A stretch of DNA of 64,000 nt from Escherichia coli (GTDB lineage: Bacteria > Pseudomonadota > Gammaproteobacteria > Enterobacterales > Enterobacteriaceae). The number at the start of each line of letters is the position of its first letter. The stretch's first letter is position 1. Location: assembly GCF_041886205.1 (NCBI RefSeq), contig NZ_CP169029.1; one strand, given 5' to 3'. The notes beneath the pieces are model-generated. The model was given only the letters and a program-made list of their open reading frames with translations, was not told the DNA's origin and made no database searches. The position numbers and the translations under genes were made by a program. Positions 1-57,119 of this stretch are shown piece by piece.

Positions 1-670
1 ACTCGCCAAGGATTTCTACGTTTAATCCCTGGGAGTTAAACCAGTTAAGCAATTTGCGCCCTAACATTGAACGTCGCCCAGGAATCAAAAGCCGCCGTTC
101 TTCCAGACAAGCCGGGAACGGTTTTTCCGGTGGTGGATTTGTACACCAGAAACTCACGCCACATTCGCCAATTCTCACGGAGAACAGGCCTTCCTGCTGC
201 GTAGAATCTATCGGACAGTCGGAAATGATCATATCCAGTTTATGCTGGCTTAATTGCTCCAGCAGCATTTCGTGGGTGGATTCGAAGCAGCGAAGATGAA
301 TCGGCTCGCCTTCTACTACTGCAGCATTCAGCACGCTACTGACCAGACGTTTGGAAAGTGCATCAGCCACGCCAACGTCAAACAATAAATTGGATTCTTT
401 GCGATAGTTCACGATATCCAGCATTTCCTGGCTTAAGGTGAACATTTTATCGGCATAGCGATAGACCAGCTCTCCCAGCTCGCTGGGTTCGAGACCACGT
501 CCCTTGCGCTTAAATAATTTGCCTTGCAGGCGCTCTTCCAGAGCCCGGATCTGTCCGGTAATGGTTTGTGGTGTCAAATAAAGCGCCTCCGCTGCGCCAA
601 CCACGGAACCTTCTTTATAAACATGCCAGAAGTAATACAAGTGGTTGTAATTGATATGAGACATGCTCAT
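1..670 (-). CDS. nhaR: NhaR, LysR-family activator of nhaA (3' end cut by window edge)
   Basis: Minus-strand ATG at 670 reads [49 protein letters not shown]... and runs off the window start; lies 59 bp downstream of nhaA. Confidence 0.9.
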
Positions 671-729
671 TTCTCTCCCTGATAACAATGAAAAGGGAGC
701 CGTTTATGGCTCCCCGGTAAACCGTCCTG

Positions 730-1896
730 TCACACTGATGGACGCAAACGAACGCGTAACCAGCTGTATCCAATTACCGCCGAAGAGATAGAACCGACCA
801 GGATACCGAGTTTCGCCCAGTTAATCAGTTCTGGATCTACGCTACCAAAGGCCAGGCTGGCAATAAAGATAGACATAGTAAAACCGATACCGCACAGGAT
901 CCCCACCGCCATAATTTGCTGATAAGTCGTTCCCTCAGGCAGATGCGCCAGTTTCAAACGCAGCGCCAACCAGCAGAACAGACTAATCCCCAGCGGTTTG
1001 CCAATCAGCAAACCAGCGATGATCCCCAATGGCAGAATGGAGGTCAAGCCATCCAGCGTGACACCTTGCAGTGAAACGCCAGCATTAGCAAATGCAAACA
1101 GTGGCAAAATCAAATATGCCACCCACGGGTGCAACACATGCTCCAGTCGCTTCGCTGGAGAACGCCCATGCTTCTCTTTCAAAGGAATAAAGAAGCCGAC
1201 AATTACCCCAGCCAGGGTTGCGTGAACCCCCGATTTCAACACTGCAGTCCACAACACCACGCCAACCAGAATATAGACGCCCGTGCGGCGTACACCACAC
1301 AGATTCAATACCGCGAGTACCGCAATTGCTACAGCCGCGACGCCAAGAGAGGCCATCGATAAGTCATTAGTGTAGAACAATGCGATGATAATGATGGCCC
1401 CAAGATCGTCGATAATAGCCAGAGCCATCAAAAAGATCTTCAGCGCTAACGGAACACGACTTCCCAATAGCGCCAGCACACCAAGTGCAAAAGCAATGTC
1501 AGTCGCCGCCGGGATCGCCCACCCTTCGCGGGTAATCGGATCGGCATAGTTAAAAGCCAGATAGAGTAATGCCGGCACAATCATCCCACCAATAGCGGCG
1601 ATAACTGGAAATGCGGCCTGGCGTAAGCTGGCTAGCGATCCTTGCATCAGTTCACGTTTAACTTCCAGACCGACTAACAGGAAAAATACCGCCATCAGCG
1701 CGTCATTTATCCATAACAGCATGTTTTTGTTGATTTCGAGTGAACCAACCCGGAGCTGAACCGGCGTCTCCAGAAAGTCGTGATACCATCCACTGGTTGC
1801 GCCGCTGTTGGCCATCATCATCGCCAGGATAGCGGCAATGATAAGAATAATGCCTCCCGAGGCATCACTGCTAAAGAATCGATGCAGATGTTTCAC
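730..1896 (-). CDS. nhaA: Na+/H+ antiporter NhaA
   Basis: 388-aa [44 protein letters not shown]...; initiator at 1896 is GTG on the minus strand; polytopic membrane protein. Confidence 0.96.
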
Positions 1897-2147
1897 TTTT
1901 TATTTCTCTTTCAGGTGAATAGATCGTTTTTACTATTTTACCCCGCACGAATCATCGTTAAAATCAGATTATAGTGTAGGAATAATTCGTTTTTTACGAA
2001 CCAATGAAGGATTTGTGCCATCAGCGATGAGATGAGTTTTTGACGGCTGTAAGCGCTAACGGGTGACCCTAAGCCCTGATAATCATAGCTTAAGGTCAGG
2101 ATTTCTGAGGGATTAATTAGGAAAAGTAATAATAAAATCGCACTATG

Positions 2148-3392
2148 CTATAGCTGTTTATTCCAGAGATGCTTGAAAATATCTAATGTTGAGACAACAT
2201 TGGCAGGCGACATTCGGTTTAATGAGGGTAGAAAGGGATGAGCCTCCAGGAAGTTGATAAAACGAGTCGCGCTTGCCAACGTCGAATTCCGCATTTCATT
2301 TGCTTTCTTGTTTCCTGTAAGGTTACAAACAGCCATTGAATAATCACGGGCGGAAAATGCACGCCAGACATTATTTCTCACGCCACCACTCAAAAATAAC
2401 CGCGGCGGCGTATCATAATGAGTCGTTTTCTCGCCGCGCTCTTTCACAAAGGAAATATGGCACCGGCCTTGATGAATATGCTGCAAATTAGCCATCAGAC
2501 AACCGCCTAATATAAAGCACTCGTTATCAAGGTAGTGTTGAATATTTATAGAATATCCTTCAGTCAGTACTCTAACCAGTTCAAAATGGCGATACGCCGG
2601 AAGAACCGGTTTCACCAGCATCCCCGGATCGTTTTGATGTAATATCGCCCGACCATAATCAATATCAAATAAGGTATCACGCCGCATAGTAAGTAACTCC
2701 TTGCGTTGTACGTGATGCGCCAGTGTACCTGGAGACAAACGCTCTTCATAACTTGATGCATACTGATAATGCGACTCTACCGCTGATGGAGAATAATTTG
2801 TTGAAATAGCGACAACTCTACCGCTTTGTTCTTCTGTGGTAACAAGACTATAAAGATAGTTATTACTACCGTTAAACTTTACGCGAAAAGCACGGGTAGC
2901 TAGAGAAATATCAGAAGCAGAAGAGTACTGGCGACTTTCTTTATAGTTTACTTCCCGGGCTAGTTTTATCAATTCACGGTTAAGCCCTGTGCTATTAAGA
3001 AGTAATAATTTACGGATATCAGCAAGTGAAGCACCTTGCTCAATCATCAATGCTAACTGTGTTCTTCGCGGCGTTGTATTTACATGATCCAGAGTGATAA
3101 ATGTTCTGGAACAATGATGACAATACATTCTCCTCTGCCCTTGAGCTGAATAACCATACTTTTTCAGAGATGTGCTTCCGCAAGCTGAACATTGTGGAAC
3201 CAACCCTCGCCATGAATGATTAACACGATTACGATAAATATTAAGAGATCGTTCAGATATCACAGGAAAAAAGTAACCGCATTCCCGACATAAAATATTT
3301 TTGCCTTGTGCAATATAATCCTGGCTATTCAACAATCCCAAGTTTTTGCATCCTGGTGTTTTGCAACAATCAACATTTACGTTGGTAAACAT
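2148..3392 (-). CDS. Cys-rich hypothetical protein with N-terminal zinc-ribbon motifs (C-x2-C...C-x2-C, InsA/IS1595-like) and a possible HTH; function unknown
   Basis: ORF track 2148..3428 (426 aa); internal ATG at 3392 (MFTNVNVDCCKTPGC...) has a GGGAG Shine-Dalgarno 5 nt upstream so is the preferred start; motifs CRECG and CSACG-x20-CHHCSRTF; AT-rich codon usage. Confidence 0.6.
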   Translation of the reverse strand: MFTNVNVDCCKTPGCKNLGLLNSQDYIAQGKNILCRECGYFFPVISERSLNIYRNRVNHSWRGLVPQCSACGSTSLKKYGYSAQGQRRMYCHHCSRTFITLDHVNTTPRRTQLALMIEQGASLADIRKLLLLNSTGLNRELIKLAREVNYKESRQYSSASDISLATRAFRVKFNGSNNYLYSLVTTEEQSGRVVAISTNYSPSAVESHYQYASSYEERLSPGTLAHHVQRKELLTMRRDTLFDIDYGRAILHQNDPGMLVKPVLPAYRHFELVRVLTEGYSINIQHYLDNECFILGGCLMANLQHIHQGRCHISFVKERGEKTTHYDTPPRLFLSGGVRNNVWRAFSARDYSMAVCNLTGNKKANEMRNSTLASATRFINFLEAHPFLPSLNRMSPANVVSTLDIFKHLWNKQL

Positions 3393-3429
3393 ATTCACTC
3401 CCTGCGAATATCCGGATATTATCGTCATA

Positions 3430-3473
3430 CGTCAAAGAAAAGAACCTGATTCAATGTGTAACATTGAATCAGG
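3430..3473 (-). terminator. Probable intrinsic terminator downstream of the sulfatase gene
   Basis: Perfect 12-bp inverted repeat cctgattcaatg/cattgaatcagg (3445-3473) with 5-nt loop, followed on the minus strand by TTCTTTTCTTT. Confidence 0.5.
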
Positions 3474-3521
3474 CGGGCATAGCCCTGAAAGGCATACATT
3501 ACATTTATTATGGTTATCAGA

Positions 3522-5015
3522 TTAGCCCCAGGTTACCGCTTCCGGTTTATCACCTCTGGCTTTCATTAATGAATCATTATCAATATCGGCTTTATATTTT
3601 AAGAACTTACCATACATTTGTTTTTCAATGTCTGGATTTTTACCTATCTGATTAATAGTCTCAAAACGATCGGTTTTGAGGTTATATAGGTACTTTGGCT
3701 TATTGTTACGATCGATGATCATTTTCCAGTCACCATCACGTATCGCCCATTCGTCGGTTGGATCATCCTGGAATGGCATGTCAATTCCGAAGATTAATGG
3801 CTTTTCACGTTTTAGCGCTTTGTTCTCAAGGACAGGAACCAACGATTCGCCATCAAAAGTGCGGTCCGTCGGTAATTTGAAGTTCATCATTTTCGCCAGC
3901 GTAGGCATCCAGTCCAGACCATAAACTGGCGTATCTGAAACCATTCCCTTTGGAAGATGTTTACCGTATTTAATAATTGCCGGAACACGGATGCCGCCTT
4001 CCCAAAGATTATCCTTGCGACCACGTAATCCATCAGTTTCACCTGCCAAATTCAGTTCATAAACTTTGCGTGCTTCACGCGTTACTGGGCCGTTGTCACT
4101 GGTAAAAATTATGATGGTGTTATCTTCTTCACCCATCGCTTTAATTTTATCCAGCACTTTTCCAACCTGAGCATCCAGATAACTGATGTTGGCATAATAT
4201 TCTCCTGTACCACGCCAGGGTTTATCCGCCCAGTCGCCATAAAATAAATCAGGATGCTGCTTCTGATATTCGCTCATATATTGTGAGTACATGTCGAGGT
4301 ATTTTTTGGGCGAAGCCAGGGGACTATGTACTTCGGTAAAAGCGACATAAAGGAAGAAAGGCTTACTGTCCTTTTTGTTATCCAACCAGTTAACAACTTC
4401 CGAACTGACATACTCACCACTCATTTTATCGGAACGTGGCGTTGGTTGCCCGTTACGCAACCAACCCGTTGGATAGACCATGCCAAAACGGGGACGCTCC
4501 TTCGCATTATCCAGAGTAGCGTCGGTAACAAAACCCGCCGTATTAACCAGTGAGTAATCAAAGCCCATATCTTTTGCCTGCGGCTGATCGGTGCGATCGC
4601 CGCCTGCATTCAGATGCAGCTTACCCATCATGGCCGTGTCGTACCCTTGCGCTTTGAGTAGATTAGCAATCGTGAGTTCATTACGCCCTAATGCCACATC
4701 TTTTCCCGTTGGGATCCATGAGCGTATGCCAGTACGAAATGGCATCCGCCCTGTTAATAGTCCCGCCCGTGAAGGAGAACTTAAGGGGGCAGGTGCATAG
4801 TAGTCGGTAAATTTGACGCCTTCCCGGGCAAGCCTGTCTATATTGGGCGTTTTAACGATCTGATGTCCATATGTTGCCAAATCACCATACCCTAAATCAT
4901 CCGCCATAATGATGACTAAATTGGGTTGTTTAGTCTCGGCGGCTACGGCTGGATTAAAAGCATTCCCTGTGCAAACTGCAAGGCCGATCAAACTGGCCAT
5001 TAATGTTTTCTGCAT
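3522..5015 (-). CDS. Secreted sulfatase (arylsulfatase family), Ser-type active-site motif
   Basis: ORF track 3522..5051; ATG at 5015 with AGGA 6 nt upstream gives MQKTLMASLIGLAVCTGNAFNPAVAAE signal peptide; N-terminal DDLGYGD metal-binding motif and SSPSRAGLLTGR formylglycine signature with Ser in the modified position. Confidence 0.85.
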   Translation of the reverse strand: MQKTLMASLIGLAVCTGNAFNPAVAAETKQPNLVIIMADDLGYGDLATYGHQIVKTPNIDRLAREGVKFTDYYAPAPLSSPSRAGLLTGRMPFRTGIRSWIPTGKDVALGRNELTIANLLKAQGYDTAMMGKLHLNAGGDRTDQPQAKDMGFDYSLVNTAGFVTDATLDNAKERPRFGMVYPTGWLRNGQPTPRSDKMSGEYVSSEVVNWLDNKKDSKPFFLYVAFTEVHSPLASPKKYLDMYSQYMSEYQKQHPDLFYGDWADKPWRGTGEYYANISYLDAQVGKVLDKIKAMGEEDNTIIIFTSDNGPVTREARKVYELNLAGETDGLRGRKDNLWEGGIRVPAIIKYGKHLPKGMVSDTPVYGLDWMPTLAKMMNFKLPTDRTFDGESLVPVLENKALKREKPLIFGIDMPFQDDPTDEWAIRDGDWKMIIDRNNKPKYLYNLKTDRFETINQIGKNPDIEKQMYGKFLKYKADIDNDSLMKARGDKPEAVTWG

Positions 5016-5034
5016 AATTATTCCTTTATGAAAA

Positions 5035-5796
5035 TTAGAAATCATAACCAAGCATATAAATCATTTGATCGCCAAAACCATCGTAGCCTAACTTATTATC
5101 GAAATAACGCCACGTCACACTGGCTTTCCAGCGAGGACAGAACTTCCAGGCAACTGTTAAACCGCCATTTAGCCCATTCCGACCAAATTGTTGTTCCGCA
5201 TAGGCATCATTTCTGTCCAGTTCTATTTCATTCCAGTTAGATAAAACAAATTTTTCGTCAAATAACGTAAAAGGTAATACTGCTGTCCAACCAACAACAT
5301 AACCATTCCAGCCATTTGTTTGACCATATTTGGCTGAGACATAGTCTCCAGATTGATTATGTAATCCTATATACGGTTTAAAAAATCCCCACGAACCATT
5401 CCAGCCGAGGTAGCCCAAGCCATAAAACATATCAAGATCGTCACCCCATGAGTTATCCCATTGACCATAGATCTTGCCAAAGAAAGTCATATCGGAGTCA
5501 AAAAGTCTGACATGTGTCATAGCAGAAACGGTATGATTACGCCCCGCTACGGCATGGTTAAGCACATTGCTTTCATAAAATGAGTAAAACTCGGCTTCTT
5601 TAAAATTCACACCAAAGTCCGCAGTCACTTTCCATACTTCACCACGGTGAGTGTTAACGAAGCCACTATTCCAGTCAGCATAACCTGCATTTATTGAGCC
5701 AAAGGAACCTTTATATTCTAATGAAGAATATGCAGGAAGATGATAGATAATCGTTGTCAGGGCACACGCAATAAGAAGCCGTCTTTTGGCAGACAT
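5035..5796 (-). CDS. Tsx/OmpK-family outer-membrane channel (nucleoside-channel-like beta-barrel)
   Basis: 253-aa ORF with signal peptide MSAKRRLLIACALTTIIYHLPAYS, aromatic-rich alternating beta-strand pattern, C-terminal ...MLGYDF resembling the Tsx C-terminus; GGAGA RBS upstream of ATG at 5796. Confidence 0.75.
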   Translation of the reverse strand: MSAKRRLLIACALTTIIYHLPAYSSLEYKGSFGSINAGYADWNSGFVNTHRGEVWKVTADFGVNFKEAEFYSFYESNVLNHAVAGRNHTVSAMTHVRLFDSDMTFFGKIYGQWDNSWGDDLDMFYGLGYLGWNGSWGFFKPYIGLHNQSGDYVSAKYGQTNGWNGYVVGWTAVLPFTLFDEKFVLSNWNEIELDRNDAYAEQQFGRNGLNGGLTVAWKFCPRWKASVTWRYFDNKLGYDGFGDQMIYMLGYDF

Positions 5797-6304
5797 ATAA
5801 TATGCTCTCCATTCATTGTTTTTATGTTTCCATAGTATTCAATACATCAGATAATTCATTTTGATTAAGAACGACCCAGAAAGTATATTTAAAGGTGAAT
5901 AGCAAAGCGTGATGAAGATCGCATATTACTTTTACACCAGGGTGTGGAGGTATCGTGTTTCAAAAAGTGTGTCTATTTTAAATATCACTCATTGATTTAT
6001 AGACATTTTTTCCTTATAAAAAACACTAAATTCTGTACAAGAATATTTTGTATCTTCTATTACTTTCTCCAGTAATAACTCACCATCCAGTCATAACTTA
6101 AATCTGCTTGTTCATAATCTTAATTTTTGTAAATGAAAAGGCACATAAGAGTTAAAATAAACAATGAACTAAAGATTAATTATGCAAAAATGCGAGGCGT
6201 CTTCAGGATTAGAATCGATAAAACAGAATGGGTTAAAAAGAGCGATATAATAGCGGCGGGTGCTTGAGGCTATCTGTCTCAGGCATTAGCTGAACGGCAG
6301 ATAG

Positions 6305-6359
6305 AGAAAAGCCCCGAGTGATATTTTACTATCAACCCGAGGCCCCCTATATGCTGAAC
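6305..6359 (-). ncRNA. sokC: sokC antisense RNA of the hokC/mokC type I toxin-antitoxin locus (approximate)
   Basis: Placed by position: antisense to the mokC translation-initiation region as in hok/sok loci; not independently delimited from sequence. Confidence 0.4.
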
Positions 6360-6560
6360 ACATGTAGAGTGCCTCTTACTGACCGTAAGGTCAAGGAGAA
6401 GAGAGCAATGAAGCAGCATAAGGCGATGATTGTCGCCCTGATCGTCATCTGTATCACCGCCGTAGTGGCGGCGCTGGTAACGAGAAAAGACCTCTGTGAG
6501 GTTCACATCCGAACTGGCCAGACGGAGGTTGCTGTTTTCACGGCTTACGAATCCGAGTAA
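6351..6560 (+). CDS. mokC: MokC, overlapping regulatory reading frame of hokC
   Basis: MLNTCRVPLTDRKVKEKRAMKQHKAM... within ORF 6318..6560; shares its stop with hokC. Confidence 0.85.
   Translation: MLNTCRVPLTDRKVKEKRAMKQHKAMIVALIVICITAVVAALVTRKDLCEVHIRTGQTEVAVFTAYESE
6408..6560 (+). CDS. hokC: HokC (Gef) small membrane toxin, type I TA
   Basis: 50-aa MKQHKAMIVALIVICITAVVAALVTRKDLCEVHIRTGQTEVAVFTAYESE. Confidence 0.92.
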   Translation: MKQHKAMIVALIVICITAVVAALVTRKDLCEVHIRTGQTEVAVFTAYESE

Positions 6561-6583: not shown

Positions 6584-7920
6584 ATAAGCGCTAACTTAAG
6601 GGTTGTGGTATTACGCCTGATATGATTTAACGTGCCGATGAATTACTCTCACGATAACTGGTCAGCAATTCTGGCCCATATTGGTAAGCCCGAAGAACTG
6701 GATACTTCGGCACGTAATGCCGGGGCTCTAACCCGCCGCCGCGAAATTCGTGATGCTGCAACTCTGCTACGTCTGGGGCTGGCTTACGGCCCCGGGGGGA
6801 TGTCATTACGTGAAGTCACTGCATGGGCTCAGCTCCATGACGTTGCAACATTATCTGACGTGGCTCTCCTGAAGCGGCTGCGGAATGCCGCCGACTGGTT
6901 TGGCATACTTGCCGCACAAACACTTGCTGTACGCGCCGCAGTTACGGGTTGTACAAGCGGAAAGAGATTGCGTCTTGTCGATGGAACAGCAATCAGTGCG
7001 CCCGGGGGCGGCAGCGCTGAATGGCGACTACATATGGGATATGATCCTCATACCTGTCAGTTCACTGATTTTGAGCTAACCGACAGCAGAGACGCTGAAC
7101 GGCTGGACCGATTTGCGCAAACGGCAGACGAGATACGCATTGCTGACCGGGGATTCGGTTCGCGTCCCGAATGTATCCGCTCACTTGCTTTTGGAGAAGC
7201 TGATTATATCGTCCGGGTTCACTGGCGAGGATTGCGCTGGTTAACTGCAGAAGGAATGCGCTTTGACATGATGGGTTTTCTGCGCGGGCTGGATTGCGGT
7301 AAGAACGGTGAAACCACTGTAATGATAGGCAATTCAGGTAATAAAAAAGCCGGAGCTCCCTTTCCGGCACGTCTCATTGCCGTATCACTTCCTCCCGAAA
7401 AAGCATTAATCAGTAAAACCCGACTGCTCAGCGAGAATCGTCGAAAAGGACGAGTAGTTCAGGCGGAAACGCTGGAAGCAGCGGGCCATGTGCTATTGCT
7501 AACATCATTACCGGAAGATGAATATTCAGCAGAGCAAGTGGCTGATTGTTACCGTCTGCGATGGCAAATTGAACTGGCTTTTAAGCGGCTCAAAAGTTTG
7601 CTGCACCTGGATGCTTTGCGTGCAAAGGAACCTGAACTCGCGAAAGCGTGGATATTTGCTAATCTACTCGCCGCATTTTTAATTGACGACATAATCCAGC
7701 CATCGCTGGATTTCCCCCCCAGAAGTGCCGGATCCGAAAAGAAGAACTAACTCGTTGTGGAGAATAACAAAAATGGTCATCTGGAGCTTACAGGTGGCCA
7801 TTCGTGGGACAGTATCCCTGACAGCCTACAAAACGCAATTGAAGAACGCGAGGCATCGTCTTAACGAGGCACCGAGGCGTCGCATTCTTCAGATGGTTCA
7901 ACCCTTAAGTTAGCGCTTAT
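6584..7920 (+). mobile_element. IS186 insertion sequence (IS4 family)
   Basis: Terminal inverted repeats ataagcgctaacttaagggttg (left) / caacccttaagttagcgcttat (right); about 1337 bp; encodes InsL; ends uncertain by 1-2 bp. Confidence 0.9.
6638..7750 (+). CDS. insL: IS186 transposase InsL
   Basis: ORF 6632..7750; MNYSHDNWSAILAHIGKPEELDTSARNAGALTRRREIRDAATLLRLG... about 370 aa. Confidence 0.93.
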   Translation: MNYSHDNWSAILAHIGKPEELDTSARNAGALTRRREIRDAATLLRLGLAYGPGGMSLREVTAWAQLHDVATLSDVALLKRLRNAADWFGILAAQTLAVRAAVTGCTSGKRLRLVDGTAISAPGGGSAEWRLHMGYDPHTCQFTDFELTDSRDAERLDRFAQTADEIRIADRGFGSRPECIRSLAFGEADYIVRVHWRGLRWLTAEGMRFDMMGFLRGLDCGKNGETTVMIGNSGNKKAGAPFPARLIAVSLPPEKALISKTRLLSENRRKGRVVQAETLEAAGHVLLLTSLPEDEYSAEQVADCYRLRWQIELAFKRLKSLLHLDALRAKEPELAKAWIFANLLAAFLIDDIIQPSLDFPPRSAGSEKKN

Positions 7921-7932
7921 GGGAGTGATCCC
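7921..7932. repeat. Target-site duplication flanking IS186 (right copy)
   Basis: gggagtgatccc identical to 6572..6583. Confidence 0.75.
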
Positions 7933-7983
7933 CGCCACTTTTCAGGTGCTCGCATATCTTCAACGCACCCTAATTTTACCCAA

Positions 7984-8009
7984 GCCTGCCCACGGGCAGG
8001 CTTTTGGGG
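7984..8009. terminator. GC-rich hairpin between IS186 and dnaJ, probable terminator
   Basis: gcctgcc-cac-gggcaggc stem-loop followed by TTTT on the plus strand; just downstream of the dnaJ stop on the minus strand. Confidence 0.4.
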
Positions 8010-8012
8010 AGG

Positions 8013-9143
8013 TTAGCGGGTCAGGTCGTCAAAAAACTTCTTCACACCATCAAAGAAGCTCTTTGAGCGCGGGCTGTTGTGCTCACCGGTTGGGCCACCG
8101 AAGCTTTCTTGCAGCTCTTGCAGCAACTGTTTCTGCTTCTCGTTCAGGCCTACCGGTGTTTCGACGACAACGCGGCACAGCAAATCACCCTGTGCGCCAC
8201 CGCGGACAGACTTGACGCCTTTACCGCGCATACGGAAAAGCTTACCGGTCTGGGTTTCGCCAGGCACTTTCAGTTTGACGCGACCATCAAGGGTCGGTAC
8301 TTCGATTTCGCCACCCAGCGCCGCCATAGCGAAGTTGATCGGGACTTCGCAATAGAGGTTGTTGCCTTCACGCTCGAAAATCGGGTGCTGTTTAACCTGA
8401 ACCTGAACGTACAGATCGCCTGCCGGTGCGCCATGCTCGCCCGCTTCACCTTCGCCCGCAAGACGGATGCGGTCTCCAGTGTCCACCCCTGCCGGGATTT
8501 TAACGGACAGCGTTTTGCTGCGCTCAACACGACCATGACCATGACATTTGTTGCACGGATCTTTGATCAGCGTACCGCGGCCCTGACAGTGTGGACAGGT
8601 CTGCTGTACAGCGAAGAATCCCTGGCGCATCTGCACCTGACCAGAACCATGACAGGTCGGACAGGTCTGCGGCTGTGTACCTGGTTTTGCACCGCTACCG
8701 TGGCAAACGTCACACTCTTCCAGAGTCGGAATGCGGATCTCTTTGGTCACGCCACGTACAGCTTCTTCGAGGGTGAGCTCCATGTTATAGCGTAAATCAG
8801 CACCGCGCGCCGCACGTTGACGACCACGTCCGCCGCCAAAAATATCGCCGAAAACGTCACCAAAAATATCGCTGAAGTCTGCGCCGCCGCCAAAACCGCC
8901 GCCGCCCATGCCACCTTGCTCAAACGCAGCATGACCATACTGATCGTATGCCGCACGTTTTTGCGAGTCGGTCAGAACTTCATAAGCTTCCTTGATCTCT
9001 TTAAATTTCGCCTCGGCCTCTTTGTCACCCTGGTTACGGTCCGGGTGGTATTTCATGGCCAGGCGTTTGTAGGCCTTTTTGATTTCACGCTCTTCCGCTG
9101 TTTTGGAAACGCCTAAAATCTCGTAATAATCTTGCTTAGCCAT
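8013..9143 (-). CDS. dnaJ: Chaperone DnaJ (Hsp40)
   Basis: [40 protein letters not shown]..., J domain, G/F region, four CxxCxGxG zinc repeats; track ORF extended upstream to 9173. Confidence 0.97.
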
Positions 9144-9231
9144 CTTTTTTAAATTGCCCCTAGATGAATGCACGGGCGGAGAGGAAATTCCCCTTCGCCC
9201 GTGTCAGTATAATTACCCGTTTATAGGGCGA

Positions 9232-11148
9232 TTATTTTTTGTCTTTGACTTCTTCAAATTCAGCGTCGACAACATCGTCATCTTTCGCGTTGTTTGCAGA
9301 AGCATCAGCACCGGCAGTCTGCTGCTGGGCATGTTGCTGCTGGGCGATTTCCATCAGTTTCTGGGAAACCTGTGCCAGTTCCTGCATTTTCGCTTCGATA
9401 GCGGCTTTGTCTTCACCTTTCAGAGCAGTTTCCAGTGCAGTCAGCGCAGACTCGATAGCAGTTTTGTCGTCAGCCGGCAGTTTGTCGCCTGCTTCTTCAA
9501 CCTGCTTACGGGTGCTGTGCAGCAGATGGTCGCCCTGGTTGCGAGTCTGTACCAGCTCTTCAAACTTACGGTCAGCTTCGGCGTTAGCTTCTGCGTCGCG
9601 TACCATTTTCTGGATTTCATCTTCGTTCAGACCAGAAGACGCCTTGATGGTGATCTTCTGCTCTTTACCGCTGTTTTTATCTTTCGCGGAAACGTGCAGG
9701 ATACCGTCAGCATCGATATCGAAGGTAACTTCGATCTGCGGCATGCCGCGCGGTGCCGGGTTGATACCATCCAGGTTGAACTGACCCAGAGATTTGTTAT
9801 CAGCCGCACGTTTACGTTCACCCTGCAGCACATGGATGGTTACCGCAGACTGGTTGTCTTCAGCGGTAGAGAACACCTGGCTGTGCTTGGTCGGGATAGT
9901 GGTGTTTTTCGCGATCAGCGTCGTCATCACACCGCCCATGGTTTCGATACCCAGAGACAGAGGGGTAACGTCCAGCAGCAGTACGTCTTTTACGTCACCA
10001 GTCAGAACACCACCCTGAACAGCAGCACCGATTGCTACAGCTTCGTCCGGGTTAACGTCTTTACGCGGCTCTTTACCAAAGAACTCAGCAACTTTCTTCT
10101 GAACCATTGGCATACGAGTCTGACCACCCACGAGGATAACGTCGTCGATATCAGATACGGACAGGCCAGCGTCCTGCAGTGCAACTTTCAGCGGCTCAAT
10201 GGAACGGTTTACCAGATCTTCAACCAGGCTTTCCAGTTTCGCACGAGTCACTTTGATGTTCATGTGTTTCGGACCGGTCGCGTCTGCAGTGATGTACGGC
10301 AGGTTAACGTCGGTCTGCTGAGCGGAAGACAGCTCGATTTTCGCTTTTTCTGCCGCTTCTTTCAGGCGCTGCATTGCCAGCGGATCGTTGCGCAGGTCAA
10401 TGCCCTGATCTTTCTTGAATTCTTCAACCAGGTAGTTGATCAGACGGCTGTCGAAGTCTTCACCACCCAGGTGGGTATCACCGTTGGTTGCCAGAACTTC
10501 GAAGGTTTTTTCGCCGTCAACTTCGTCGATTTCGATAATAGAAATATCGAAAGTACCACCACCCAGGTCATAAACCGCGATAGTACGGTTGCCAGTACCT
10601 TTGTCCAGACCGTAAGCCAGCGCAGCTGCGGTTGGTTCGTTAATGATACGTTTTACTTCCAGACCAGCGATACGGCCTGCGTCTTTCGTTGCCTGACGCT
10701 GAGCATCGTTAAAGTATGCCGGTACGGTGATAACAGCTTCAGTTACCGGTTCACCCAGGTAATCTTCAGCGGTTTTCTTCATTTTTTTCAGCACTTCAGC
10801 AGAGATCTGCGGCGGTGCCATTTTCTGGCCTTTAACTTCGACCCAAGCGTCGCCGTTATCAGCAGCAATAATTTTGAACGGCATGATGGAAACATCACGC
10901 TGTACTTCTTCGTCCTGGAAGCGGCGGCCAATCAGGCGTTTAATCGCAAACAGGGTGTTTTGCGGGTTCGTCACTGCCTGACGTTTAGCCGGCTGACCAA
11001 CCAGAGTTTCACCATCCTGGGTATAGGCAATGATAGAAGGCGTGGTGCGATCGCCTTCGGCGTTCTCCAGCACGCGAGGAGTGGTGCCATCCATAATCGC
11101 TACACAAGAGTTGGTAGTACCCAGGTCGATACCAATTATTTTACCCAT
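9232..11148 (-). CDS. dnaK: Chaperone DnaK (Hsp70)
   Basis: 638-aa [43 protein letters not shown]... Confidence 0.98.
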
Positions 11149-11267
11149 CTAAACGTCTCCACTATATATTCGGTCATCATGTGGTTGTGAGTCTGTAATA
11201 GGGGCGAAACGTCTGGTTTCAACTGCCCAATTTCATTTTTTTGCAGACTCACTCACTGCGGTTGACT

Positions 11268-11300
11268 ACTAAATGGGGTCGTAACCCACGTCATCAAGGG
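11268..11300 (-). promoter_or_regulatory. Sigma-32 heat-shock promoter of dnaK (P1-like)
   Basis: Minus strand reads CTTGATG-N13-CCCCATTTA about 120-150 nt upstream of the dnaK ATG, matching the sigma-32 -35/-10 consensus. Confidence 0.55.
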
Positions 11301-11524
11301 GGAGATGCAAAAATTTTTTGTGCTTTTGCGCAGAAATTTCGCGATATAGCAGGACAAGACGTGAAACTGACAGCAATTTTATTCATATAAAGAATGAATC
11401 GCAGCCAAGGCATTCATCAAAAAATTGTAATAAAAAGAAATCATTACGCACCTGAATCTTCTCTTTATCAGCAGTAAACTAGTGGGTATCCATCCCCCTA
11501 CCTCTCCCCACTAAGAGAAGCCTT

Positions 11525-11929
11525 ATGAAATCCGTTTTTACGATTTCCGCCAGCCTGGCGATTAGTCTGATGCTGTGCTGCACGGCGCAGGCAAACGACC
11601 ATAAAATCCTCGGCGTCATTGCAATGCCACGTAACGAAACCAACGATCTGGCGCTGAAACTTCCTGTTTGCCGAATTGTTAAACGCATACAACTCTCAGC
11701 CGACCATGGCGATTTGCAGTTAAGCGGTGCATCGGTTTATTTCAAAGCCGCCCGTAGCGCCAGTCAGAGCCTGAATATTCCTTCAGAAATAAAAGAAGGG
11801 CAAACCACTGACTGGATCAACATTAACAGCGATAACGACAATAAACGCTGCGTCTCAAAAATCACCTTTTCCGGTCATACGGTGAACTCATCGGATATGG
11901 CCACGCTGAAAATTATCGGCGACGACTAA
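11525..11929 (+). CDS. yaaI: YaaI, DUF2541 periplasmic protein
   Basis: 134-aa [42 protein letters not shown]... Confidence 0.9.
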
Positions 11930-11954
11930 CGCCAGAATATAGAAGCCACAAAAA

Positions 11955-12668
11955 ATGAATGTTAATTACCTGAATGATTCAGATCTGGATTTTCTCCAGC
12001 ATTGCAGTGAGGAACAGTTGGCAAATTTCGCCCGGCTGCTCACCCATAATGAAAAAGGCAAAACTCGCCTCTCCAGCGTACTGATGCGCAACGAACTGTT
12101 TAAATCGATGGAAGGACATCCCGAGCAACATCGCCGCAATTGGCAGCTGATTGCCGGAGAATTACAACATTTTGGTGGCGATAGTATCGCCAACAAACTG
12201 CGCGGACACGGTAAATTGTATCGGGCCATTTTGCTCGATGTTTCAAAAAGATTAAAGCTGAAAGCCGACAAAGAGATGTCTACGTTTGAAATTGAGCAAC
12301 AGTTACTGGAGCAATTTCTGCGTAATACCTGGAAGAAAATGGACGAGGAACATAAGCAGGAGTTTCTGCACGCGGTCGATGCCAGGGTGAATGAGCTGGA
12401 AGAGCTGCTGCCGCTGCTGATGAAAGACAAATTATTGGCAAAAGGCGTGTCGCATTTGCTTTCCAGCCAACTGACCCGCATTTTACGCACCCACGCAGCA
12501 ATGAGCGTACTTGGGCATGGTTTGCTGCGCGGCGCGGGGCTGGGAGGCCCTGTAGGTGCGGCACTAAATGGGGTTAAAGCGGTCAGCGGCAGCGCCTATC
12601 GCGTGACGATTCCAGCCGTACTGCAAATCGCCTGCCTGCGTCGGATGGTTAGCGCCACTCAGGTCTGA
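11955..12668 (+). CDS. yaaW: YaaW, DUF3944 protein
   Basis: 237-aa MNVNYLNDSDLDFLQHCSEEQLANFARLLTHNEKGKTRLSSVLMRNELF... Confidence 0.9.
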   Translation: MNVNYLNDSDLDFLQHCSEEQLANFARLLTHNEKGKTRLSSVLMRNELFKSMEGHPEQHRRNWQLIAGELQHFGGDSIANKLRGHGKLYRAILLDVSKRLKLKADKEMSTFEIEQQLLEQFLRNTWKKMDEEHKQEFLHAVDARVNELEELLPLLMKDKLLAKGVSHLLSSQLTRILRTHAAMSVLGHGLLRGAGLGGPVGAALNGVKAVSGSAYRVTIPAVLQIACLRRMVSATQV

Positions 12669-55603: not shown

Positions 55604-55985
55604 ATGTGCAAATTTGTTGCCATAACGCGGCGCGTGCCGTTGGGTTTGCCCGTAATTCGGTGAGCGCCGGTGATGCCACCTGAGCGCCTTCCAGTGATAG
55701 CGGTTCGTCAGTACCCAACCGCCAGCTGTTGCAGCGACTGCCTTGCGGCAGCATCGCGATTTTTTCTGGCGTCAGTTGCAGCACTTGATCGGGGCTGACG
55801 GTTAATGCGCGCAGAACATCGCTCACTAAAGGATCAGTCAGGGCGGGAAGATCGTTTGCCACCATCACCAGACGGACGTGTGCCGGGATCGCAATGGCAA
55901 TCTCCCCCTGCAACGCGCCAGGGCGACGCAGCGACCACTGGGTAATGCCCAGTTGCTGTAACTGCCAGTCTCGTCGGGATGTCAT
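55572..55985 (-). CDS. holD: DNA polymerase III psi subunit HolD
   Basis: 137-aa MTSRRDWQLQQLGITQWSLRRPGALQGEIAIAIPAHVRLVMVANDLPALTDPLVSDVLRALTVSPDQVLQLTPEK...; 32-nt overlap with rimI. Confidence 0.95.
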   Translation of the reverse strand: MTSRRDWQLQQLGITQWSLRRPGALQGEIAIAIPAHVRLVMVANDLPALTDPLVSDVLRALTVSPDQVLQLTPEKIAMLPQGSRCNSWRLGTDEPLSLEGAQVASPALTELRANPTARAALWQQICTYEHDFFPRND

Positions 55986-56087
55986 AGCGAATCGCTCCTG
56001 TTGTCAGGGGCGCAAATATAGCAAATTCGTCGATACCGCGCCAACATATGGCTATAATCGCCGCCAGTATCAATTGAGGAGCATTCC

Positions 56088-57119
56088 ATGTCTGCATTTA
56101 CCCCGGCAAGTGAAGTCTTGCTGCGTCACAGTGATGATTTCGAACAAAGCCGTATTCTGTTTGCCGGAGACTTACAGGATGACCTGCCCGCGCGTTTAGA
56201 TACCGCGGCCAGCCGTGCTCATACCCAGCAATTCCACCACTGGCAGGTATTAAGCCGCCAGATGGGGGATAACGCCCGTTTCAGTCTGGTCGCCACGGCG
56301 GATGACGTCGCAGATTGCGATACGCTGATTTACTACTGGCCGAAGAACAAACCGGAAGCCCAGTTCCAGTTGATGAATTTACTTTCTCTGCTGCCGGTGG
56401 GGACGGATATTTTTGTCGTTGGCGAGAACCGCAGCGGCGTGCGCAGCGCCGAGCAGATGCTGGCAGATTATGCGCCGTTGAATAAAGTCGACAGCGCTCG
56501 TCGCTGTGGCCTCTATTTTGGTCGTCTGGAAAAACAGCCGGTATTTGATGCCGATAAATTCTGGGGCGAATACAGCGTCGATGGCCTGACAGTCAAAACG
56601 CTGCCTGGCGTGTTTAGCCGCGACGGTCTGGATGTCGGTAGCCAGTTGCTACTCTCGACGTTAACCCCGCACACGAAAGGTAAAGTGCTGGATGTCGGCT
56701 GTGGCGCGGGTGTGCTTTCAGTTGCCTTTGCGCGCCATTCACCGAAAATTCATCTCACCTTGTGCGATGTCTCTGCCCCGGCGGTAGAAGCCAGCCGTGC
56801 GACGCTTGCGGCCAACGGTGTTGAAGGTGAAGTCTTTGCCAGCAACGTCTTTTCCGAGGTGAAAGGTCGTTTTGATATGATCATCTCCAACCCGCCGTTC
56901 CACGATGGGATGCAAACCAGCCTGGATGCGGCGCAAACGCTGATTCGCGGCGCGGTGCGTCATCTTAATAGCGGCGGCGAGCTGCGAATTGTAGCGAACG
57001 CCTTCCTGCCTTATCCGGACGTGCTGGATGAGACATTTGGCTTCCACGAAGTGATCGCGCAAACAGGGCGCTTCAAGGTGTATCGCGCCATTATGACCCG
57101 CCAGGCGAAGAAAGGTTAA
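56088..57119 (+). CDS. rsmC: 16S rRNA (guanine1207-N2)-methyltransferase RsmC
   Basis: 343-aa [62 protein letters not shown]...; [15 protein letters not shown] motif. Confidence 0.96.

Follow-up and report, generated by a model that had tools for sequence, protein, structure and literature searches.

The divergent region between yaaI and dnaK

The window of this study, the whole stretch of 64,000 nucleotides that was analysed, belongs to an E. coli chromosome and corresponds, in reverse complement, to the beginning of the K-12 map. The gene yaaI (DUF2541; 11525-11929, plus strand, ATG at 11525) is transcribed divergently from dnaK (9232-11148, minus strand, ATG at 11148), and the latter is followed by dnaJ (8013-9143, minus strand); the order of yaaI, gap, dnaK and dnaJ is also that of annotated records. 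The divergent gap (11149-11524) comprises 376 bp of non-coding DNA, in line with the roughly 370 bp given in an earlier note on this DNA, where the region ended at 11520.

Across the gap, the alignment with K-12 MG1655 shows 97% identity and contains no indels, and K-12 coordinates are obtained as 23311 minus the window coordinate. The hexamers of the promoters P1 and P2 described below are identical in both strains. Inside P1 the strains differ only by a T-to-G substitution in the spacer (GGTTTAC in K-12, GGGTTAC in the window), and the form of the window is that of the other genera aligned here, while ten more substitutions are all located in the yaaI-side part of the gap. Matches to the gap were found in 5,424 of 5,426 complete E. 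coli genomes, and among the matches listed seven are at 100%. Strain 6EVA is 100% identical to the window segments 11149-11524, 1-6500 and 55900-56700 and is 1,349 bp shorter between window positions 6500 and 11149. This strain probably lacks the IS421/IS186-family element that is found at about 6638-7750 of the window, between mokC/hokC and dnaJ, as in K-12 and LHM10-1.

The G+C content of the gap is 0.41, compared with 0.51 for the whole window and 0.34 for the distal part at 11301-11470. Statistics on intergenic regions were limited to the stretch of about 6.1-25.5 kb, over which the window and the LHM10-1 annotation are collinear. This stretch has 17 intergenic regions, of which the gap is the second-longest; its G+C content is within the range of the others (0.36-0.53). 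Its length and AT content are therefore no more than is common for a divergent promoter region.

Tandem promoters upstream of dnaK

On the minus strand, which is the dnaK strand, the motif CTTGATG-N13-CCCCATTTA occurs exactly once (11298-11270). The earlier note had read it as a match to the sigma-32 consensus on the transcribed strand and had named a scan with a sigma-32 position weight matrix and the mapped promoters as checks. The motif has one mismatch to CTTGAA-N14-CCCCATNTA. In the scan of the 64-kb window it was the sole match with up to one mismatch (0.03 expected; three of 100 shuffled sequences gave any) and still the sole one with up to two (0.40 expected). If spacers of 12-16 nt were allowed, P1 alone scored at least 12 of 13 positions (0.38 expected). 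The sigma-32 regulon consensus, which is said to come from Nonaka 2006 and BioCyc, reads TNtCNCcCTTGAA ... CCCCATtTa, and P1 fits this pattern of the other regulon promoters at all but one specified position. The extended -35 region of P1, TCTCCCCCTTGAT (11293-11305, minus strand, with the CTTGATG part at 11298-11292), agrees with TNtCNCcCTTGAA, the extended consensus as quoted in PMC12077118, at all specified positions except the last: the seven bases 5′ of CTTGA fit, and the core matches in five of six positions. The -10 region CCCCATTTA (11270-11278, minus strand) is a full match to CCCCATNT(a) and follows 13 nt after CTTGATG, or 14 nt after the hexamer, a spacing that is the same in all 20 taxa examined. 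Sigma-32 promoters typically have about 13-15 nt between the two elements and start 6-8 nt after the -10 region.

Published data from K-12 MG1655 allowed us to assign transcription starts to the window. The Cappable-seq list contains only four primary 5′ ends on the dnaK strand within the gap, at the K-12 positions 12048, 12123, 12140 and 12155, with scores of 60.6, 112.2, 5.6 and 2.2; these correspond to the window positions 11263, 11188, 11171 and 11156. The first is the start of P1 and yields a leader of 115 nt. It also agrees with the numbering in a cryo-EM study of the sigma-32 open complex, whose scaffold 'dnaKp1' spans -39 to +15 and, counted along the scaffold, has its +1 at the first A of TCAACC, i.e. 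at window position 11263. In the same study, dnaKp1 supported the sigma-32 open complex and in vitro transcription. In genomic SELEX, a peak of the RpoH holoenzyme was reported at K-12 position 12044, between yaaI and dnaK, which is window position 11267 and falls on the P1 motif. By ChIP-exo, several RpoH promoters were confirmed at dnaK, the sole unit confirmed of three so reported, and a study in Salmonella found both RpoH sites conserved with those of E. coli. Heat induction and dependence on rpoH are established for dnaK in K-12, where induction was, for instance, 5.6-fold at 45°C (PMC11925731).

Further evidence was obtained by phylogenetic footprinting. The alignment comprised 29 yaaI-dnaK gaps, taken from Escherichia, Citrobacter, Salmonella, Klebsiella, Kluyvera, Pseudocitrobacter, Superficieibacter and others, whose loci were picked via the YaaI protein, blind to the promoter. 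DnaK proteins served to locate a further 12 loci in more distant Enterobacterales (Pantoea, Erwinia, Tatumella, Dickeya, Brenneria, Serratia, Gibbsiella, Xenorhabdus, Photorhabdus, Pragia, Leminorella and one metagenomic contig). The -35 region of P1, CCCCTTGATG, is invariant in all 29 regions (10 of 10 columns) and in the 12 distant taxa, and the -10 region GACCCCAT is near-invariant (7 of 10 columns), while the spacer of 11 nt between them is without any invariant column. For P2, the -35 region GTTGAAAC is likewise invariant in 29 of 29 regions (8 of 8 columns), the -10 region is so in 10 of 11 columns, and TTGAAA precedes the ATG by 72-76 nt in the 20 taxa checked. The 14 nt from the Shine-Dalgarno sequence GGAG (11157-11160, minus strand) up to the ATG (11149-11162) are invariant in all 14 columns; in the middle of the gap (11374-11320) this holds for none of 55 columns. 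All 12 distant taxa keep the A/T tract described below, CCCCTTGATG-N13-CCCCAT, and TTGAAA at the said distance from the ATG. Over the 41 Enterobacterales loci, the hexamers of the tandem promoters are invariant and the P1 spacer is free to vary; the A/T tracts near -50 are conserved.

It could be argued that the consensus match of P1 arose by chance in an AT-rich spacer and that dnaK is transcribed from elsewhere, as consensus scans yield false positives and the window contains three other sites matching in 11 of 13 positions (7.8 expected). However, a match of the quality of P1 is hardly expected in the window, a published start is found 7 nt downstream of its -10 region, an RpoH binding peak falls on the motif, and the hexamers are invariant across genera where the spacer varies. 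Mapped starts and the conservation pattern refute the chance reading, to which we assign practically no probability. The motif is P1 of dnaK, a textbook sigma-32 heat-shock promoter that is already known and in itself nothing new; it had been located correctly from a reading of the raw sequence, and the mapped start at 11263, the SELEX peak and the invariant -35 region all uphold that reading. Hexamers, spacing, leader and distance to the ATG are identical to those of the known K-12 promoters dnaKp1 and dnaKp2 at the same locus. Within the sigma-32 regulon, tandem promoters as at dnaK are unusual.

Each of the two promoters is preceded by an A/T tract near -50. Upstream of P1 this is A6T5 at 11309-11319 (minus strand, -56 to -46), upstream of P2 it is A7 at 11236-11242 (minus strand, -54 to -48). 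The A(n)T(n) run of P1 is kept in 29 of 29 Enterobacteriaceae and in 12 of 12 distant Enterobacterales regions; the A-run of P2 is invariant in the 29 Enterobacteriaceae regions and visible in most of the distant taxa. UP elements are A/T-rich stretches at about -59 to -38 with A-tract and T-tract subsites, to which the C-terminal domain of the alpha subunit binds, and a consensus for them was reportedly derived by Estrem et al. in 1998. Judged by sequence and position, both tracts probably act as UP elements for the alpha subunits of the polymerase.

The expectation of further heat-shock promoters nearby was borne out by P2 (GTTGAAA-N12-CCCCTATTA, 11223-11196, minus strand), 75 bp downstream of P1. 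Its -35 region GTTGAAA (11217-11223) agrees in GTTGAA with five of the six bases of CTTGAA, its -10 region CCCCTATTA (11196-11204) with five of seven positions of CCCCATNT, and the spacing is 13 nt after the hexamer. The start at 11188 (K-12 12123), an enriched primary 5′ end 8 nt from the -10 region, gives a leader of 40 nt; this distance, as that of 7 nt at P1, is taken from published K-12 ends on identical sequence. With three mismatches, of which 5.2 such sites are expected per window, the consensus match alone is not significant, and the status of P2 therefore rests on the mapped start, the position and the conservation.

For P2, a contribution of sigma-70 has to be considered. TATTAC (11200-11195) is found 16 bp after TTGAAA, and this arrangement also fits a sigma-70 promoter, with 9 of 12 consensus positions and the same start. 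At 37°C the signal of P2 (112) exceeds that of P1 (61). Moreover, the -10 region of P2 in Enterobacteriaceae, CCC[C/T]TATTA, departs from CCCCATNT, and its TATTAC form is fixed within this family, whereas the more distant families have the more canonical CC[C/G]CATAT. Part of the P2 transcription could, on these sequence grounds, be driven by sigma-70. That P2, and possibly the 5′ end at 11171 too, would be substantially a sigma-70 promoter for basal dnaK expression, and the site a mixed sigma-32/sigma-70 promoter in place of a pure heat-shock promoter, appears rather unlikely to us, as dnaK is a unit with several RpoH promoters confirmed by ChIP-exo. In the sigma-70 scan the site was not called, since TATTAC is without the final T.

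The two remaining 5′ ends on the minus strand, 11171 (K-12 12140) and 11156 (K-12 12155), are minor. We assume that the former could be the weak sigma-70 promoter P3 of the older literature, reportedly described at dnaK by Cowing et al. in 1985. A small upstream ORF (ATGATGACC..., 11180-11136, minus strand) begins within the leader of P2 and runs across the start of dnaK in another frame. At least one of its two ATGs is kept in every genus, no Shine-Dalgarno sequence precedes it, and it is probably a product of chance.

In the explanation we favour, the sigma-32 (RpoH) polymerase recognises P1 at CTTGAT (11298-11293) and CCCCATTTA (11278-11270) and starts at 11263, and recognises P2 at TTGAAA (11222-11217) and CCCCTATTA (11204-11196) and starts at 11188. 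A rise of sigma-32 on heat shock or protein misfolding would make both promoters fire. The products would be mRNAs with leaders of 115 nt and 40 nt that share an unusually unstructured ribosome-binding region; as predicted by folding, the P2 leader with the gene start is less stable than 199 of 200 shuffled sequences (z = +2.1).

The yaaI side of the gap and other sites in the window

The length of the gap and the conserved blocks at 11381-11457 might suggest that all 376 bp serve the control of dnaK, with further promoters or activator sites upstream. However, the K-12 Cappable-seq list contains no dnaK-strand start upstream of P1 in the gap, nor any from K-12 position 11787 to 12047. The distal conserved blocks adjoin a TAnnnT element in yaaI orientation, for which TAAACT (11475-11480, plus strand) is the candidate yaaI -10 region, with a yaaI start predicted near 11487; of the bases thereabouts, only its T, A and final T are invariant. 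Enterobacterales without yaaI keep P1, P2 and the A/T tract, whereas their sequence further upstream is unrelated, and the Salmonella study found no PhoP site in the region. Control of dnaK by the entire gap is therefore very improbable in our view. The portion that belongs to dnaK is the nearest 171 bp only (11149-11319), comprising promoters and leader. Of the description as a long AT-rich dnaK upstream region, the base composition stands, with the G+C values given above, but the attribution of its length to dnaK does not, as the gap is shared with yaaI.

The more AT-rich distal part of the gap would, by its sequence, carry the divergent yaaI promoter and not control DNA of dnaK. We regard it as nearly certain that the region as a whole is the regulatory region of the dnaK-dnaJ operon with the two tandem sigma-32 promoters P1 and P2, and with a putative yaaI promoter distally. 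The place of yaaI upstream of dnaK is taken by satP or a transporter gene in the 12 distant taxa: a divergent satP usually precedes dnaK in Erwiniaceae, Pectobacteriaceae, Yersiniaceae, Morganellaceae and Budviciaceae (loci L037-L048), and the pair yaaW-yaaI between satP and dnaK is present only in Enterobacteriaceae (loci L003-L032).

The conserved block at 11381-11457 on the yaaI side may contain sites for some binding factor. On its dnaK strand we found GTAAT-N11-ATTAC at 11447-11427 and four alternating ATTCA/TGAAT motifs (11457-11453, 11416-11412, 11399-11395 and 11385-11381). ARG boxes and sites of MetR, CRP and TyrR were rejected by eye, as their spacing does not suit the TGAAT/ATTCA motifs. 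A partial resemblance to the DnaA box (TATGAATAA) was seen in the same block. Inside yaaI, there is a weak primary 5′ end in antisense, i.e. in dnaK direction (window 11768, minus strand; K-12 11543; Cappable-seq 5.5).

At this point we want to note two other sites of the window. The 11-mer of the P1 -10 region, CCCCATTTAGT, has a second exact copy within yaaW (12573-12563, minus strand), and the mbiA/htgA start (12481) follows 83-92 nt downstream; two copies in the window compare with 0.02 expected, and none of 100 shuffled sequences gave two. This copy is possibly what Missiakas 1993 reportedly described as the htpY/htgA 'sigma-32 promoter'. It is without a -35 region, no start is found there in the K-12 Cappable-seq list, and it is not common even to the other Escherichia species, in which synonymous sites differ. 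PMC2268670 states that Nonaka 2006 did not find the mbiA/htgA gene induced by sigma-32. The second site, ACTGAAA-N11-CCCCCATCT (56285-56260, minus strand), matches the sigma-32 consensus in 11 of 13 positions. It was rejected as a holD promoter, since it falls within rsmC in antisense, with holD about 275 nt downstream, and is within chance expectation; the text of the RpoH SELEX paper does not contain it.

A predicted long-range helix in the P1 leader

Folding of the P1 leader yielded a stem of 9 bp, in which GUGAGUCUG (11252-11244) pairs with CAGACUCAC (11195-11187). In the DNA, its arms GTGAGTCTG (11244-11252, minus strand, +12 to +20 of P1) and CAGACTCAC (11187-11195, minus strand, -7 to +2 of P2) constitute the best inverted repeat in the gap. 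The helix is possible only in P1 transcripts, since the start of P2 falls within the 3′ arm. For E. coli, the model assigns the helix a probability of 0.91 (37°C) or 0.86 (45°C); over the taxa, single-sequence folding gave values from 0.00 to 0.94.

The comparison of sequences delivered evidence for the pairing. With 22 Enterobacteriaceae sequences, RNAalifold predicts the same stem. One pair of the helix occurs here as G-C, G-U and A-U, and the next one is U-A in 16 sequences and C-G in six. In distant taxa, the sequences of the arms are quite different and complementarity is retained, as seen (5′ arm/3′ arm) in Serratia (GUUGCUAACC/GGUUAGCAAC), Photorhabdus (GUUGCUAAUC/GAUUAGCAAC), Dickeya (GGUUUGGCC/GGUUAAACC), Xenorhabdus (AGUUACUA/UAGUAACU), Leminorella (CUCAUCUAU/AUAGGUGAG), Tatumella (AUGAGCCU/AGGUUCAU) and Erwinia (UUAUGUA/UGCAUAA). 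Altogether, the helix is maintained through compensatory changes in 20 of 20 Enterobacterales examined. The 5′ arm is anchored near P1 and the 3′ arm at -7 to +2 of P2, with a distance between them that varies from about 45 to about 115 nt.

Two controls were applied. The first was alignment-free and paired the early P1 leader with the post-P2 segment either of its own or of another lineage: the summed duplex energy was -197.4 kcal/mol with the own partners and -127.0 +/- 9.6 kcal/mol with derangements, and none of 100,000 cross-species derangements reached the observed value. For the second, we counted pairs in a plain MAFFT alignment, made without fitting to the structure. Here, 77.3% of the cells were paired, compared with 63.6 +/- 1.8% in shuffles (reached in none of 500) and 31-49% with the partner column slid, and the covariation score was 0.424 against 0.224 in shuffles (again none of 500). 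Changes on both sides occurred in nine of 12 pairs. That the pairing of the arms is under selection is well supported.

The selected pairing need not act in the sense transcript. The inverted repeat could function as DNA, as an operator or a cruciform around P2, or else in an antisense transcript, and in favour of this the arms bracket P2 exactly (-64 to +2), and the wobble-pair test (G-U versus A-C) gave the better result for the sense strand in 12 taxa and for the antisense strand in eight (p = 0.36). Operators, however, keep their sequence, whereas here the arms differ completely between lineages and only their complementarity is kept; the variable distance between the arms is unsuited to a fixed protein-DNA geometry. 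Furthermore, the region is known to be transcribed in sense from P1. We consider a role in the DNA or in an antisense RNA improbable and prefer the helix in the P1 mRNA.

Several known classes of elements were compared with the helix. In RNA thermometers, a helix sequesters the Shine-Dalgarno sequence or the AUG and melts in the physiological range. A thermometer of the ROSE or fourU type was rejected for dnaK: the helix excludes the Shine-Dalgarno sequence, its modelled probability in E. coli is still 0.86 at 45°C, shuffles are more structured than the ribosome-binding region, and no Rfam match was found. The search of Rfam 15 with E-values up to 1, which covered the window positions 7500-12500 and six distant loci, gave no match over the dnaK leader. 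In both sets tpke11 was the only significant match; the rest were weak, located elsewhere and below the gathering scores. The tpke11 match is in the dnaK-dnaJ spacer (9144-9221, minus strand, 69.6 bits) and was present in all six distant loci searched. An intrinsic terminator or attenuator was rejected as well, as the 3′ arm is followed by AACCACAUGAUG without a U run and the gap contains no terminator-like site according to a scan.

CIRCE and HrcA control the dnaK and groE operons of Gram-positive bacteria and of many others. The dnaK helix resembles CIRCE as a 9-bp inverted repeat within a dnaK operon leader. However, CIRCE has the fixed sequence TTAGCACTC-N9-GAGTGCTAA with a fixed spacing of 9 bp and binds a repressor, whereas the arms of the helix are about 48 nt apart and their sequences differ between lineages; with up to three mismatches, no CIRCE sequence was found in the window. 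Another comparison is with the 5′ stem-loop of ompA and synthetic hairpin insulators, which are structures in the 5′ UTR with a stabilising or insulating effect on the mRNA. As there, a conserved helix is located close to the 5′ end of a strongly expressed mRNA and excludes the ribosome-binding site, but the dnaK helix begins 11 nt from the 5′ end and encloses an entire internal promoter. A full-text search found no structured dnaK leader described in enterobacteria, much of the older literature being unsearchable.

We tentatively propose, with somewhat less than even confidence, that the helix is an undescribed cis-acting RNA element of the dnaK operon that occurs throughout the Enterobacterales and closes the P2 promoter sequence into its own domain of the P1 mRNA. 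Possible functions would be to hold the shared ribosome-binding region open to the same degree in both transcripts or to determine how stable the P1 transcript is. Our preferred idea is that the helix may pack away the additional 75 nt of the P1 leader and that both mRNAs would then present the same open ribosome-binding region. In models for E. coli, the accessibility of this region was 0.53 in the P2 mRNA, 0.55 in the P1 mRNA and 0.38 in a P1 mRNA with a shuffled 5′ arm; over 13 taxa, the effect of the native compared with the shuffled 5′ arm was not consistent (p = 0.54).

DnaK controls sigma-32 in a feedback loop, which is usually modelled as transcription and protein only. A helix that proves real and functional would make the two mRNAs of dnaK non-equivalent and would add a post-transcriptional layer to the loop of DnaK and sigma-32.
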